Origin: Candidatus Bathyarchaeota archaeon | GTDB taxonomy: Archaea; Thermoproteota; Bathyarchaeia; Bathyarchaeales; Bathycorpusculaceae | Length of the DNA stretch: 64,000 nucleotides | NCBI GenBank assembly: GCA_963733095.1 | Contig: CAVTBV010000013.1 | Location: 1-64,000, forward strand | Direction: 5' to 3' | Part shown: positions 6,731 through 17,611 of the stretch, in pieces | Numbering within the stretch: the stretch's first letter is position 1 | Layout: each line of letters opens with the position of its first letter | Position numbers and translations under genes: made by a program | The notes under the pieces: model-generated | Told to the model about the DNA's origin: nothing | Databases searched by the model: none | The model's input: only the letters and a program-made list of their open reading frames with translations

Positions 6731-6828
6731 TCAGCGTTTGACACTTACGCAATTGAAATATTGGTTTCTATTGGAAGATTCGAATGCTAAGGTTTTAACC
6801 AGAATAGAGGCTCATCCAATATAAAATT

Positions 6829-7127
6829 TTAGGTAGAAATAGCCTGTTCGTCTTCATCCACGGTGACAATAAATTCGAGTTCGGGCTCCTTCACGATAAT
6901 GGCACTTCTTCTTTTTATGAGGCTTGCCTTTAGCATTAACGAGCCGCTTATCATAGCTCCTAAACCACCCAAGATACACATGTAACGAGTGTAGCCTCCA
7001 AAAAGTGGGTGAACTCCCTCTGACCACCCAAATAGGGCAAACTCTAAGGCTGAGGTACCTACAATTAACGCTAAAGCTCCAACTGTAATTTTGTTTTTAA
7101 GATGTTCGATTATTTTAGGCGTTGCAT
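6829..7127 (-). CDS. Small membrane protein, probable 1-nt frameshift just after the start
   Basis: ~99-codon open frame with two hydrophobic segments (KITVGALALIVG..., MCILGGLGAMISG); ATG after GAAGGTG is out of frame. Confidence 0.35.
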
Positions 7128-7608
7128 TGCACCTTCTAGGCGGATATTGTTTAGGTGCACATTAAGTGTGGCATGGGTAAACGGTTTATGAAATCAAGGT
7201 TCATATTTGAAATATTTTTTCGAAAAAACTTGTTCACCCCACATGTTAATAGTCTGAAAATCAGCTAATGCAGACCTATCCATCTATCGTTTCTGCATAA
7301 AACTACTATTAGGTTCCAAATAAAAAATTTCAAACTGTCGCAGAAAAAGAAAGAGCACTATCTTACTTTTCTCTTTATTTTGCTTCCATCGTCAAATGTA
7401 AGAACCCTCTGTGCAGGGTTTACTTTTGGAGCGACTTTTTCAACAATTTTCTTTTCAGTTTTATTCGTGTTTAACAAGCTATCCGTTAGACAAGAGATTC
7501 GACTTAAAACTTTGGTGGCTAATAAAATACTAATCGCTGCATTTTAATCACTAGAGTTTATCCATGCTTACTTTTAGAGGTGGTTTGCAACTTCCTTTGT
7601 TGGTGTTG

Positions 7609-8871
7609 TTATTCAATTTTACTATGTCTGTACCTCAAGATAGCGGCGAAGCCTCCTAAGGCTGTGAGCTTGGCTTTTTCCGTCGACTCTGTCGATATCA
7701 CCTCAACCCTTGCGTCTGTCTGCGAAGCCAAATCCTCCAGAACATCAATTATGTCCTTCTCCTCCACTTCATAATCAACCGCATTGCACCTCGAACATGG
7801 ACTCGAAATCATATCCCGCGTTGCTTGAACCTTCTGCTCGTTATGCAAAATTTTCGACTTTGATAATCTGCATTTTTTGCACAATAGAACAACTTGAATC
7901 ATTTCTGTAGTGTCCGCCACTAATGCAACTTCCACTTCACCATTCTTAAGAGCCGCCAAAACCACATCTAAACCGTAAGTAGCTAAATTGTCTTGTTTGC
8001 CCAGATAAGTCAAAAGCCGTTGCACAATCAATCTTTCCTCAGGTGCACACATGTTCTTGATGGTCTCGGATGATTTGTCAAGAACCTCTTTCACTCCTTC
8101 TTTGTCGGCGGATTGTGTATCAACCGTGCTAACTAGGGCATTTTGGAGTTCATAATGAAGATAATCACCCTTTAGAAAATCCTCTTTGGTTAGCCCCGGT
8201 CCCCCAACTGTCAACGCCGTAACTTTGTGTTTTTCAAGAAACGCTTTTGCAGAATGCTCTGCAACTCGGTGGAAATAGTTTGTGAGCGCCATATCGCGTT
8301 CTCTTTCATACCTTCGTTGGCTTGACCCGCCCTTTCCAGACTTGCCATGAATCCCCGAAGTAATATTCTCAAGAATTTCAAGGCGTTCACCATTGAGAAC
8401 CCCAAAGCTTGCCTCCTTTGAATCCAAAACAATTACCCCAACAACTTTTTGGTTTCTCAGCATTTCTCTTATAGGCTCTAACCGAAAATGGTTGTCAACT
8501 TCGTAGAGGTATGCGGTAATCGGTTCTGGTGGAGCGAGCTCTTCAACGTATAAAACTTCGTTTTCCGAGTTGTTAGGAGCGAAAGTCCCAGCAAATAAGG
8601 CAATTCCATTCTCAGGGATTTGATTCTGTAGTTTCAGTCGTTGGATAATATTCTTGAGAGCATCTTGCAGATGGTCTCTGATGTTCCTTGCGTTCTCGTA
8701 CTTTGAGGTTGCCTCTTCGGATTCATCCTTTAGGTTTGCAACTACTTTGTCCAGCGATGAGTCTCGTGGTATGTAGAGCGAGATAAACTCCATGCCCTTG
8801 CCCTCTTTGTCGGATAACCATGCCACGAGCTTTCTTAGTTTGTGCTGCTTCACTGAATTTGTGGTTGCCAT
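7609..8871 (-). CDS. aRF1/eRF1-family paralogue with degenerate catalytic and stop-recognition motifs
   Basis: ISLYIP, ENGIALF, GPGLTK and LGGFAAILRY motifs and CxxC-CxxC minidomain are present; GGSSQRR replaces GGQSxRR. Confidence 0.85.
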   Translation of the reverse strand: MATTNSVKQHKLRKLVAWLSDKEGKGMEFISLYIPRDSSLDKVVANLKDESEEATSKYENARNIRDHLQDALKNIIQRLKLQNQIPENGIALFAGTFAPNNSENEVLYVEELAPPEPITAYLYEVDNHFRLEPIREMLRNQKVVGVIVLDSKEASFGVLNGERLEILENITSGIHGKSGKGGSSQRRYERERDMALTNYFHRVAEHSAKAFLEKHKVTALTVGGPGLTKEDFLKGDYLHYELQNALVSTVDTQSADKEGVKEVLDKSSETIKNMCAPEERLIVQRLLTYLGKQDNLATYGLDVVLAALKNGEVEVALVADTTEMIQVVLLCKKCRLSKSKILHNEQKVQATRDMISSPCSRCNAVDYEVEEKDIIDVLEDLASQTDARVEVISTESTEKAKLTALGGFAAILRYRHSKIE

Positions 8872-8989
8872 CTGACATCCATGAAAATGTGTTGAAACCA
8901 AATTCGACACCTTAACGTTCAGTTACGGGGAATACTAATTTATAGAGTTTCTCAATAAGGGTATTTGTTTGGCAAGAGGAAATATTTTG

Positions 8990-15821: not shown

Positions 15822-16340
15822 ATGATAACCATAACGGAACAGCTTTGGAGCGATGTAAAGCAATCGACAATAAGGGGAGTTATGAAACTCTTGGATGCTT
15901 CGCAAATGCTTTTACTAAATAATGGAAATAAGGAGGTCTGTGCAGGTTTGTACAGTTACGCTGTCGAAGAATACGGAAAATACCTCAGACTGACTGATTG
16001 TCTAAAGGTGCAAAATGGTGTTGAACTTGATTATTATGATATCTTTAGAGAAAGACGCCATGAAAAGAAGTTTAGAAGAGCCATCGATGACCTAAAGAGC
16101 AAGGACGCTTGGGAATGCACCATTTTAGCAAAGGGTCTCTTTGATCCTGCTATATTTGACCCTAAAATTTTTGATACCAGACCTCCTGTTGTTGTGGATT
16201 TCAATGCACGAATGGGGGTTTTCTATTGCGATTTGGATGATTCAAAACAGAGTTTAAGGGCTATTCCAGAGGTAGATATTGTACTTTTAGAAAAAGCGAT
16301 AATAAAGCTTAGAGAAATTCTGTTACCTCTAATCTCTTAA
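15822..16340 (+). CDS. HEPN AbiV-family protein
   Basis: LLDASQMLL...GLYSYAVEEYGK and RRHEKK match the AbiV-type EExGK / HxxK pattern. Confidence 0.7.
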   Translation: MITITEQLWSDVKQSTIRGVMKLLDASQMLLLNNGNKEVCAGLYSYAVEEYGKYLRLTDCLKVQNGVELDYYDIFRERRHEKKFRRAIDDLKSKDAWECTILAKGLFDPAIFDPKIFDTRPPVVVDFNARMGVFYCDLDDSKQSLRAIPEVDIVLLEKAIIKLREILLPLIS

Positions 16341-17611
16341 TTGGACTGCGATTGTTTGATATAGCCTGATTTTAGCTTCTCCGCATCTTTTTTGAATTGT
16401 TTTACAAACTCTGGGTTGTTCGCTAACTTGTTAGCTACTTGTTCCATTATGCTGTCAGCCATTTCCCTGTAACTCTCGGAATTTGCTATTTGCTTAATCA
16501 TGTTGCTTAAAGCCTCAAGCTCATTTTTAACGTCCTCAAGTTCTTTGCCTTTCTCGTCAAGTTGCCTCTTTATCTTTTGATTTTCCTCAGAAATCACATC
16601 AGTAATTGTTCTCTGGTCAGTTAAGTCACTCTGAAGTCTTTTTATAGCGTTTTTTAGAGGCTCAATTTTCTCAATATCGAGTTTTGGCTGTTCTGTAATG
16701 CTCAAGAATGTTTTTAGTTGGATAAATTTCTGCCTCAGATTTACAGTTGTCAAATATGTGTCGTCTGATTGTGCTATGGCTTTTCCGCAAAGCTTCTTTC
16801 CCGCCGTTAAGCCAATTCCGCTATCGATTGATGCAGAGAGGAACATTTTTCTAAAACAGTGAAATGAAACGCACTTGCCGTTAAGGTTAATCTTTGCTTT
16901 TTCTGTTAAACGCTGTAAGAGCTTGTTTAGCCATTCGTCAGAGATGCTTCTATTTCCATTAGAGGGGAAAAGGTATGGGTTGCCGTTTTTGCGTTCTAAA
17001 GTTGGCAAATAGATTTTGAGAAGGTCAACTGTTTCTTTGCTTAGAAAACCGTACGCTAAGACGCCCTCTTTTACGGTCATAGTTTCGAAGGCTATCGGCG
17101 GTTCTTGGTCTAATAATGGTAAATCGGATTTTTTTAGCGCAATAAAATCGCCTATCCTTAAACCCAAATCCGTTGCCATGATCAAAATTACTCTTTCCCT
17201 CAGGTCAGCTACTTCAAACATTTTACGGACATATTCAATCGTTAGAGGGAAATTCTTGGTTGTTTTAACCGTCTTTCCTATTTTGCTTCCGTTTCTAAAG
17301 CGTATTGGCATTTCATAATATCTGAAAAGTTGCCTAATTCCTAAGGTTTGAACTCTTGCTGTGTTGATGCTTCCTTGAGTTAGAAGTTGACTATGGAATT
17401 TTTCTATTTCTTTTTCAAAGTGTGAAGCTCTGTTTCGATATTCAATCAGGTTTTCTCCTGCTTGTTGGGTTAGGTCTTCTTTTCTAAGCTCAAGGATTTG
17501 TTCTGCGGTCTTTCCGTACCATTCACAGAACTTTTTAAGTCCATGTCTGTAACATTTTCTTGTTTTTGGGTTTGATATTGACTCAAGGAAGACTTGACTA
17601 CTCAATTCCAT
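16337..17611 (-). CDS. Tyrosine recombinase/integrase with C-terminal coiled coil
   Basis: GLRIGD (Arg), FHCFRK (HxxR), DTY (Tyr); N-terminal TRKCYRHGLKKF. Confidence 0.92.
   Translation of the reverse strand: MELSSQVFLESISNPKTRKCYRHGLKKFCEWYGKTAEQILELRKEDLTQQAGENLIEYRNRASHFEKEIEKFHSQLLTQGSINTARVQTLGIRQLFRYYEMPIRFRNGSKIGKTVKTTKNFPLTIEYVRKMFEVADLRERVILIMATDLGLRIGDFIALKKSDLPLLDQEPPIAFETMTVKEGVLAYGFLSKETVDLLKIYLPTLERKNGNPYLFPSNGNRSISDEWLNKLLQRLTEKAKINLNGKCVSFHCFRKMFLSASIDSGIGLTAGKKLCGKAIAQSDDTYLTTVNLRQKFIQLKTFLSITEQPKLDIEKIEPLKNAIKRLQSDLTDQRTITDVISEENQKIKRQLDEKGKELEDVKNELEALSNMIKQIANSESYREMADSIMEQVANKLANNPEFVKQFKKDAEKLKSGYIKQSQSN

Follow-up and report, generated by a model that had tools for sequence, protein, structure and literature searches.

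A Bathyarchaeia paralogue of release factor aRF1 with degenerate decoding motifs and an invariant GG loop

In a 64,000-nucleotide stretch of DNA from Candidatus Bathyarchaeota archaeon (positions 1 to 64,000 of contig CAVTBV010000013.1; hereafter the window), an open frame on the minus strand at 7609-8871 (420 codons plus TAA) encodes a paralogue of the archaeal peptide chain release factor aRF1. Throughout the family to which this protein belongs, the motifs associated with stop-codon reading have degenerated, while the two glycines of the GGQ loop and their flanks are invariant and the position of the glutamine is free to vary. We tentatively favour the view that the product of the gene is an A-site factor independent of stop codons, which retains the whole aRF1 scaffold and is possibly active in codon-independent release or rescue.

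Degenerate decoding motifs and an invariant loop

The window protein scores 370.8 bits against the NCBIfam aRF1 model TIGR03676 (cut-off 234.7) and matches the Pfam domains eRF1_1 (residues 14-138), eRF1_2 (144-273) and eRF1_3 (278-415), so that a first-pass annotation of this DNA was right to call it a full-length aRF1-type protein with all domains. The Pelota model TIGR00111 gives 66.7 bits against a cut-off of 177.65 and covers only residues 129-322, and the Balon/Rv2629 model NF052289 (30 bits against 320) and the acVLRF1 model NF041024 (33.4 against 125) likewise remain below their cut-offs. The acVLRF1/baeRF Pfam families PF18859 and PF18854 score 42 and 35.6 bits, in the M domain only and beneath a far stronger eRF1_2 match. 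Aligned residue by residue to the solved aRF1 4af1 (E 1.8e-60), the protein has none of the class-1 hallmarks NIKS, YxCxxxF, GT(S/E) and GGQ. K-G-G-S-S-Q-R-R stands where 4af1 has k-g-g-q-s-a-q-r (GGS codons GGC GGG TCA, 8331-8323), unrelated residues with a two-residue insert fill the NIKS stretch, YEVDNHF takes the YxCxxxF place, and G-M-E lies opposite the G-T-Q of 4af1. The first-pass annotation had named these same replacements, all of which are seen in the alignment, and the CxxC...CxxC Zn minidomain that it reported does persist (7881-7786). An AlphaFold2 model based on 39 family members reaches moderate quality (mean predicted local distance difference test score, pLDDT, 74.1; predicted template-modelling score 0.48); its top Foldseek matches are aRF1 and eRF1 structures, the best being 4af1 (E 2.8e-29), and its N domain superposes on that of human eRF1 with a target-normalised template-modelling score of 0.87 and a root-mean-square deviation of 2.2 A over 140 columns.

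The features of the gene, all on the minus strand, are as follows; residues are counted from ATG 8871 unless stated, and the probable upstream start is discussed further below.

7609..8901, minus strand: coding sequence of the aRF1 paralogue, from the probable start TTG 8901 to TAA 7611-7609, 430 codons, with GTG 8910 as alternative start
8936..8953, minus strand: candidate promoter resembling a B recognition element (BRE) and TATA box, GAGAAACTC + TATAAATTA, about 39 nucleotides ahead of TTG 8901, function putative
8908..8913, minus strand: Shine-Dalgarno-like AAGGTG, 6 nucleotides ahead of TTG 8901, function putative
8872..8901, minus strand: N-terminal tail LVSTHFHGCQ, in a frame that is open in orthologues, with an invariant Cys
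8788..8796, minus strand: GME at the GT(S/E) loop, placed by alignment to 4af1
8674..8724, minus strand: degenerate NIKS loop ESEEATSKYENARNIRD, placed by alignment to 4af1, with high entropy and indels in the family
8485..8505, minus strand: YEVDNHF at YxCxxxF, with Cys replaced by Val; D-(D/N)-H-F is common to Nitrososphaeria aRF1
8293..8334, minus strand: GG loop KGGSSQRRYERERD, with G181 and G182 invariant and Ser at residue 183 (codon TCA 8325-8323)
8047..8049, minus strand: family-specific Cys275, Arg in both canonical groups compared (C285 counted from TTG 8901)
7786..7881, minus strand: CxxC...CxxC minidomain of the C domain, a sequence motif
7630..7656, minus strand: C-terminal GGFAAILRY, conserved across the family

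The motif equivalent to GGFAAILRY has been implicated in eRF3 binding in e/aRF1 (PMC2613156).

The contrast between the decoding motifs and the GG loop holds across the family. In an alignment of 150 family members, 18 aRF1 proteins of the host type and 79 Nitrososphaeria aRF1 proteins, the NIKS loop has a mean column entropy of 1.43 bits in the family as against 0.12 and 0.41 bits in the two canonical groups, while the GG loop and its flanks give 0.37, 0.34 and 0.47 bits, respectively; the family entropies are lowered by the preponderance of close relatives in the sample. In a FastTree phylogeny of the 150 members, where the median column undergoes 11 parsimony changes, the NIKS-equivalent columns 54-56 undergo 39, 52 and 49 (ranking 13th, 2nd and 3rd of 420) and contain indels, while K180, G181, G182, S184, Q185, R186 and R187 undergo none. 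As regular expressions, KGGxSQRR is found in 150/150 members, YxCxxx[FY] and the GTx pattern in 0/150, and NIK[SD] in 2/150, compared with 18/18 host-type and 77/79 Nitrososphaeria proteins for the last. CxxC...CxxC is retained in 149/150 aligned members, and one genome copy outside that alignment (G435) lacks the segment. Among the conserved changes that distinguish the family from either canonical group are Val for Cys at 125, Gln for Ala at 185 and Cys for Arg at 275. Cys275 is invariant in an alignment of 63 sequences, reaching down to 52% identity to the window protein, in which 63 columns are invariant. These patterns make the predicted loss of canonical stop-codon reading across the family well supported.

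Residue 183, by contrast with the frozen positions around it, has changed at least 17 times (rank 145). It is Ser in 65 of the 150 members, Gln in 64, Glu in 12, Met in 4, Trp in 4 and Ala in 1, and never Pro; the codons in 32 genome copies are CAA (10), CAG (8), TCA (7), TCG (5), TCC (1) and GAG (1), with GGQ in 18/32. Gln is found in every deep branch of the family, and Ser is characteristic of the crown group to which the window protein belongs. GGS is thus a feature of a subclade and not of the family. The first-pass annotation had raised the possibility that GGS is clade-conserved under purifying selection: the selection is borne out (omega 0.10-0.30, see below), but the residue itself varies. 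We also considered, and dropped, the idea that residue 183 changed by way of an in-frame amber codon (S TCG, W TGG, Q CAG and E GAG are each one step from TAG); no stop occurs at codon 183 in any of the 32 genome copies.

Variation at the same place was also seen in a separate set of sequences. The aRF1-type proteins of L168:88-1278 and L169:1-1194 (+), together with P0137, P0147, P0148 and P0157, have intact NIKS and YRCDQMF motifs and GGW instead of GGQ, and two metagenome contigs, with products 68% identical to P0137, confirm that the codon is really TGG. Among 102 representatives matched by loop pattern, the third residue is Q in 84, W in 10, S in 3, F in 3, E in 1 and V in 1.

The frame 7609-8871, which the first-pass annotation described as intact without naming its strand, is open on the minus strand, but ATG 8871 is probably not where translation starts. 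In 13 of 29 orthologous genome copies, the codon aligned to it is none of ATG, GTG and TTG but ATA, ATT, CTA, CTC, CTG, GTA, TTA or GAA, and the frame upstream is open in 29/29, encoding a conserved peptide (consensus ..EKVTHFHGCQ) with coding-like third-position variation. Because the aligned codon is so often no start codon and the upstream frame is open and conserved, the true start would lie upstream, probably at TTG 8901 or GTG 8910. The tail thus added to the window protein, LVSTHFHGCQ, is three codons short of the family consensus. Its Cys (C9) is invariant in 63/63 aligned tail-bearing sequences and its Phe and Gln are at least 90% conserved, and the HFHGCQ tail is absent from the N-termini of seven representatives of canonical type (P0121-P0124, P0126, P0128 and P0132). 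Public gene calls are divided, with 67 of 119 parsed proteins beginning at the ATG-type position and 52 carrying the tail. Further upstream, the GGTG string of the Shine-Dalgarno-like AAGGTG recurs at the aligned place in many orthologous loci. The window has the BRE/TATA-like GAGAAACT-TATAAATTA at 8953-8936, and ATAAAT or TTAAAT occurs at -72 to -82 from codon 1 in 19/29 loci despite unrelated neighbours, compared with a background rate of 7.9% for this motif anywhere in random 130-nucleotide genome windows. The paralogue therefore travels through unrelated neighbourhoods with its own conserved promoter-like upstream region, which may serve as its promoter.

Origin, distribution and selection

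The window is part of a 2.84-Mb assembly of 16 contigs that is 95% complete (GCA_963733095.1), in which its contig is C13. Among the sequencing runs listed, 7 are of DNA type and none is of RNA. A canonical aRF1 that scores 511 bits and has TASNIKS, GGQ and YRCDSRF is encoded on contig C9 and a Pelota (247.1 bits) on contig C5, so the gene is indeed a paralogue, as first annotated, and not the only aRF1 of its genome. Like the canonical copy of this genome, those of 17 other genomes have NIKS, GGQ and YRCD[SA]RF (18/18). A third aRF1 match, on contig C4, was rejected as an extra copy: C13:1-10091 duplicates C4:74472-84549 over 10.1 kb (98.76% identity), without a single difference in the paralogue coding sequence, and this contig-end overlap is probably an assembly overlap of two strain variants that inflates counts such as 'three aRF1 hits'.

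A changed genetic code or recoding was likewise rejected. The genome has no PylS above cut-off and no suppressor tRNA among the 33 tRNAs found by ARAGORN, a search that did not extend to intron-bearing tRNAs, and all three stops are in use (TAA 586, TAG 221 and TGA 202 in frames of at least 300 codons). The same observations, together with the intact canonical aRF1, speak against a working release factor whose codon specificity has been altered to suit a changed or ambiguous code. Such a factor would agree with the score above the aRF1 family cut-off and with GGQ in 64/150 members, but the codon-reading elements are the most variable part of the protein, with indels and no new conserved form, and we regard this explanation as very improbable.

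The affinities of the family point outside its hosts. In a search of 1.84 billion proteins, the nearest representatives after its own cluster were P0121-P0126, at 40-46% identity, which have NIKS, GGQ and Y-x-C-D-D-H-F and several of which contain inteins. Their close relatives in named genomes belong to Nitrososphaeria (80 loci), with C-D-D-H-F/Y in 79/79 extracted proteins, and nothing more than 49% identical to P0124 was found in 401 sampled Bathyarchaeia genomes. Trees were obtained by quick searches with support from the Shimodaira-Hasegawa-like approximate likelihood ratio test (SH-aLRT). In the first (92 rows, LG+C20, Pelota as outgroup), 31 paralogues form one clade (SH-aLRT 100, stem 0.64) that is nested in a clade with Nitrososphaeria-type proteins (SH-aLRT 100), and 18 host-type aRF1 proteins are separate (100); in the second (54 rows, of which 15 are named Nitrososphaeria sequences), the same grouping of paralogues and Nitrososphaeria proteins recurs with SH-aLRT 99. 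In an approximately unbiased (AU) test, forcing the paralogues together with host-type aRF1 cost 50.3 log-likelihood units (p-AU 0.0095), a result to be read with the paralogues' long stem in mind and for a group chosen after the tree had been seen. A recent duplication within the genome is rejected by the trees and the AU test. Independently of any tree, 11 well-conserved columns are common to paralogues and Nitrososphaeria aRF1 to the exclusion of the host type, and 4 show the opposite pattern. The family is thus most likely a xenologue from a Nitrososphaeria-like lineage, as far as sequence comparison can tell; an ancient duplication followed by wide loss is an alternative origin. As for the tree with aRF1, Pelota and Balon proposed in the first-pass annotation, the trees built here cover aRF1 and Pelota, and the comparison with Balon is by analogy and by profile score (30 against 320).

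The inteins of the Nitrososphaeria-type proteins (P0121, P0122, P0123 and P0126) sit at the two most critical sites. One lies between Y-x and the Cys of YxCxxxF; the other follows GGQ directly, beginning with Cys and ending in HN before the Ser. Of the 150 best representatives, many have lengths of 500-1450 residues, with the split at query residue 183.

The family itself is confined and patchy. In a database of 5.8 billion proteins, 1423 of the 8000 candidates scored matched at E <=1e-10; the best 120 of these are 70-78% identical to the window protein over the full length of the latter, and those among the 120 that are named are 'aRF-1' of Bathyarchaeia, except for two names from bins labelled bacterial. 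Of 101 genomes sampled from the host family, 8 have a copy at least 54% identical, each together with a canonical copy at 35-38% identity. Across the class (401 sampled genomes, E <=1e-100), the paralogue is present in 30 genomes from 2 of 37 families and was not found in the remaining 35 families. By genus, it is found in 20 of 39 other genomes of the window's own genus (21/40 counting the window's), in 4/12, 2/2 and 1/3 genomes of three further genera of the host family, and in 2/18 of another family of the same order. Bearers in the genus average 2.58 Mb (n=21) and non-bearers 2.18 Mb (n=19), from rounded sizes. In a phylum-wide sample of 401 genomes, the sole match outside the class was a 41%-identical protein (G759), which we read as a probable canonical factor because it is the only aRF1 candidate in its genome. 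The frame is open in 31/32 genome copies; the copy in G445 is broken by two in-frame stops.

Across 21 loci of about 17 kb, the paralogue is the only gene common to all, with synteny confined to near kin. No recurrent partner gene was found in these loci, and Pfam searches with 68 neighbour open reading frames (ORFs) from 17 of the 21 gave a mixed set (loci G442, G450 and G417 share neighbours with scanned loci, and the window's neighbours were scanned separately). Translation genes lie beside the paralogue in four scanned loci (eIF1A and RIO1; an IF-2B-family protein and a tRNA-intron endonuclease; a class-I tRNA synthetase; an AlaX-like protein), none recurring beyond near kin. At one locus (L031, genome G048), the paralogue directly follows a 25-nucleotide string like a tRNA T-arm, acceptor 3' strand and CCA, which may be the remnant of an integration site; ARAGORN found no whole tRNA in the wider locus, L164. 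IMG/VR contains no member of the paralogue family among its matches, which are three distant aRF1-like genes, 33-35% identical, with NIKS or GGQ. These three (L170:7950-8924, L171:7938-8927 and L172:7917-8360, on contigs of 61-156 kb) encode proteins of 325 and 330 residues and a 148-residue piece. The two long proteins have NIKS and a YxCxxxF-like string and no Zn minidomain, and all three have KGGQSQRR, a string shared by construction, since the scan was pattern-based.

Selection was measured as omega by the Nei-Gojobori method, with 57 of 378 pairs of copies at a synonymous divergence (dS) below 1.5. Omega of the paralogue is 0.12-0.30 in the 25 pairs of lowest dS. In seven genomes with both genes, it is 0.10-0.18 for the paralogue (11 of 21 pairs measurable) and 0.036-0.072 for the canonical gene (5 of 21 measurable). 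The paralogue is therefore under purifying selection that is looser than on the canonical copy. Its nonsynonymous divergence (dN) between genomes is 0.8 to 4.3 times that of the canonical gene, and between G098 and both G016 and G000 the paralogue dS is about 1.0-1.1 while the canonical dS is saturated, which hints at a transfer between Bathyarchaeia lineages.

Two explanations have to be weighed against this record. The first is that the gene is a functionless passenger, a foreign aRF1 copy drifting towards loss. It would account for the patchy distribution, for an apparent dispensability, for a rate above that of the canonical copy, and for one broken and one internally deleted copy. An omega of 0.10-0.30 across many lineages, 63 invariant columns in 63 sequences, open frames in 31 of 32 genome copies, conserved novelties specific to the family (the HFHGCQ tail, Cys275 and Gln185) and a conserved upstream region speak against it, however, and we give this explanation hardly any credence. 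The second is a factor linked to conflict or to mobile elements, spread horizontally and engaged in a struggle between host and virus, or element and host, over termination, for example against stop-recoding invaders. Foreign origin, patchiness (21/40 genus genomes, 2/37 families), unrelated neighbours in most of the 21 loci, divergences of paralogue and canonical gene that disagree between genomes (the dN ratio of 0.8-4.3 and the dS of G098), the tRNA 3' end-like fragment before one copy and a tyrosine integrase 7.4 kb away in the window all fit this idea. Yet most of the immediate neighbours have ordinary housekeeping roles, no gene of phage, defence or transposon type recurs, and the 68 neighbour ORFs include a single DDE transposase fragment; the family was not found in IMG/VR; the G+C content of the gene (0.439) equals that of the genome (0.431); and omega is well below 1 overall. 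On balance, a conflict factor appears improbable.

Two further observations concern the surroundings of the gene in the window. The tyrosine recombinase, with a phage-integrase domain (E 1.4e-10), is a 424-residue ORF at 16337-17611 (minus strand), and several ORFs without Pfam match separate it from the paralogue. On the other side, the roughly 880 nucleotides between the paralogue stop and a GDSL-lipase gene (6731-7608) hold no convincing ORF of 60 codons, although a short frame on the minus strand may code for a hydrophobic peptide.

A possible codon-independent A-site factor

The reading that we tentatively prefer begins with the entry of a Nitrososphaeria-type aRF1 into one group of Bathyarchaeia, where its descendant now stands beside the host's own aRF1 and Pelota. 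The N domain keeps its eRF1 fold while the three stop-reading elements have decayed and, because all three have, the protein should not select ribosomes by their stop codon in the known way. In the M domain, the absolute retention of the GG loop and its flanks suggests that this loop still enters the peptidyl-transferase centre. The factor would then still promote peptidyl-tRNA hydrolysis, perhaps more slowly or less selectively where the Gln is replaced. Its targets might be ribosomes that are stalled or have no readable codon in the A site, as for bacterial ArfB and mitochondrial ICT1, in which a GGQ-type loop frees peptides from stalled ribosomes without codon recognition. Delivery by aEF1-alpha and hand-over to ABCE1 are conceivable from the conserved C domain. 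Ribosome binding, catalysis and the kind of ribosome targeted are all predicted in this scheme.

Work on bacterial factors gives the conservation pattern a possible meaning. There, the GGQ glycines take a backbone conformation impossible for other residues, the hydrolytic water is coordinated by the main-chain amide of the Gln, release is lost when the Gln is changed to Pro, and the side chain of the Gln mainly packs a pocket and thereby selects water (PMC4691834, for the last point citing Shaw and Green 2007). Given these data, invariant glycines followed by anything but Pro are what would be expected of a factor that catalyses or triggers hydrolysis without the side chain.

Several points weigh against this reading. 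To our knowledge, the Gln of GGQ is kept universally in working class-1 factors. Mutants of eRF1 at this Gln are more impaired than bacterial factors without it, and a literature search for data on eRF1 Gln185 mutants gave nothing usable. Free replacement of the Gln, by Trp and Glu among others, would be just as compatible with a protein whose function has ceased to be hydrolysis. For rescue, Pelota is already present in the genome. The canonical omega is exceeded 2- to 4-fold; the family is patchy, with one broken copy (G445) and one without the Zn minidomain (G435), from which the paralogue would seem dispensable; and the HFHGCQ tail is modelled as disordered (pLDDT 26-39), so that the model offers no structure for it. 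Finally, the activity of factors without the Gln is known from bacterial RF1 and RF2, by way of a citing paper (PMC4691834).

A more specific form of codon-independent release, which we consider doubtful, is an archaeal, aRF1-derived peptidyl-tRNA hydrolase that is the counterpart of ArfB/ICT1. Here the Gln would be dispensable, the G-G backbone would do the work and the third residue might tune the nucleophile; the target ribosome would be sensed no longer by codon reading but by the new His/Cys tail together with Cys275, which might form a metal or redox site. If this were true, nature would have shown the 'universal' Gln of GGQ to be dispensable.

The main competing explanation, and the one put forward in the first-pass annotation, is a non-catalytic occupant of the A site, acting with or without aEF1-alpha, in which the GG loop is kept for fit and not for chemistry. 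It might park and protect idle ribosomes as Balon does, hand stalled ribosomes over to ABCE1 for splitting as Pelota does, or damp termination by competing with aRF1. A Gln position that is free to vary and decoding motifs that are lost would both follow naturally. There are also precedents: Balon and Pelota are relatives of aeRF1 without NIKS and GGQ (PMC10901736, PMC2613156), putative archaeal Balon proteins without NIKS or GGQ are described as always occurring beside aeRF1 (PMC13324472), and one of the two aRF1 copies of M. barkeri is seemingly inactive in termination (PMC2943090). In Pelota and Balon, however, the whole GGQ loop is gone, whereas K180, G181, G182 and S184-R187 are unchanged in all 150 sequences here. 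We know of no non-catalytic reason for such invariance of the loop glycines and their flanks. The Balon and Pelota models score well under their cut-offs, and the deep branches of the family all have GGQ; the first-pass annotation had itself named GGQ in close orthologues as evidence against its reading, and 64 of the 150 members have it. The glycines are moreover those needed for the catalytic backbone conformation (PMC4691834). 'Non-catalytic', as first written, is therefore unsupported, and we consider such a role possible but somewhat unlikely. The codon-independent release or rescue factor remains the reading that we prefer.

Relation to known systems

Release-factor paralogues that have moved past codon reading have repeatedly become rescue or hibernation factors, as in Pelota and Balon. 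A paralogue that no longer decodes is thus a kind already known, of which the Bathyarchaeia family would be a variant. It looks like an intermediate: decoding has been lost, everything in the catalytic loop but the Gln is frozen, and a conserved tail is new. It also amounts to a natural mutagenesis series, with six residues at the Gln position in proteins otherwise 70-78% identical, that would permit a direct test of the long-debated role of the Gln side chain in a factor of archaeal/eukaryotic type. For annotation it is a trap: its proteins are named 'peptide chain release factor aRF-1', and because of this, factors that work and factors that do not decode are lumped together in tallies of 'two aRF1 copies' in archaeal genomes. 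Since Bathyarchaeia abound in sediments and no cultured model exists for them, a lineage-specific translation factor is of interest for their physiology. Two aRF1 copies have been reported in 4.3% of sampled archaeal genomes (n = 81), without discussion of motifs in the text cited (PMC12626013). Our literature search, which did not take in Table S9 of PMC12626013 or the figures and supplements of PMC13324472, where Bathyarchaeia could be listed, found no description of the Bathyarchaeia family, its Nitrososphaeria affinity, the HFHGCQ tail or an otherwise frozen GG loop with its third residue free to vary.

Among known proteins, canonical aRF1 (TIGR03676; 4af1, 3agk, 3vmf) shares with the family its three domains, the eRF1-type N fold, the GG loop with its conserved flanks, CxxC...CxxC and G-G-x-A-A-x-L-R-Y. 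The family differs in lacking NIKS, the Cys of YxCxxxF, GTx and a conserved Gln, in adding the HFHGCQ tail and Cys275, and in being an extra copy in 8/8 genomes of the host-family sample. The aRF1 of Nitrososphaeria (P0121-P0126; loci L066-L145) groups with the family in both trees and shares D-D/N-H-F with it, but keeps NIKS and GGQ and is only 40-46% identical to the window protein; one such protein, that of genome G759, is the sole aRF1 candidate found there.

The second aRF1 of Methanosarcina (aRF1-2) and the 'potential archaeal Balon' are likewise extra aeRF1-type copies that are not active in, or not suited to, termination (PMC2943090, PMC12626013, PMC13324472). In M. barkeri, according to a review, just one of the two factors seems to function in termination (PMC2943090), and potential archaeal Balon proteins without NIKS and GGQ are described from Methanosarcinia, Syntropharchaeia and Thermoplasmatota, Bathyarchaeia not being named in the text on them (PMC13324472). 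These proteins belong to other host classes, whereas the Bathyarchaeia family appears to have arisen inside the Nitrososphaeria aRF1 branch; the comparison is by description, our trees being without their sequences. The potential archaeal Balon was, furthermore, selected as lacking GGQ (PMC13324472), whereas the Bathyarchaeia family keeps the GG loop and would ancestrally have had GGQ.

Balon/Rv2629 resembles the family as an aeRF1-like A-site protein without NIKS, and is a distant structural relative (Foldseek E 3.6e-14 to 8v9j). In Balon, however, a GG(Q) loop is missing, and an HP motif and a lasso loop are used (PMC10901736), features not searched for here, whereas the family keeps its GG loop. 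Pelota/Dom34 (TIGR00111), another paralogue of aeRF1, likewise binds to the A site without the need to read a stop codon and has M and C domains in common with the family, but the N domain of the window protein is of eRF1 type and Pelota is without the GGQ tip (PMC2613156). With ArfB/ICT1, finally, the likeness is a functional analogy only, since fold and descent are unrelated (bacterial release-factor type) and ArfB keeps its Gln.

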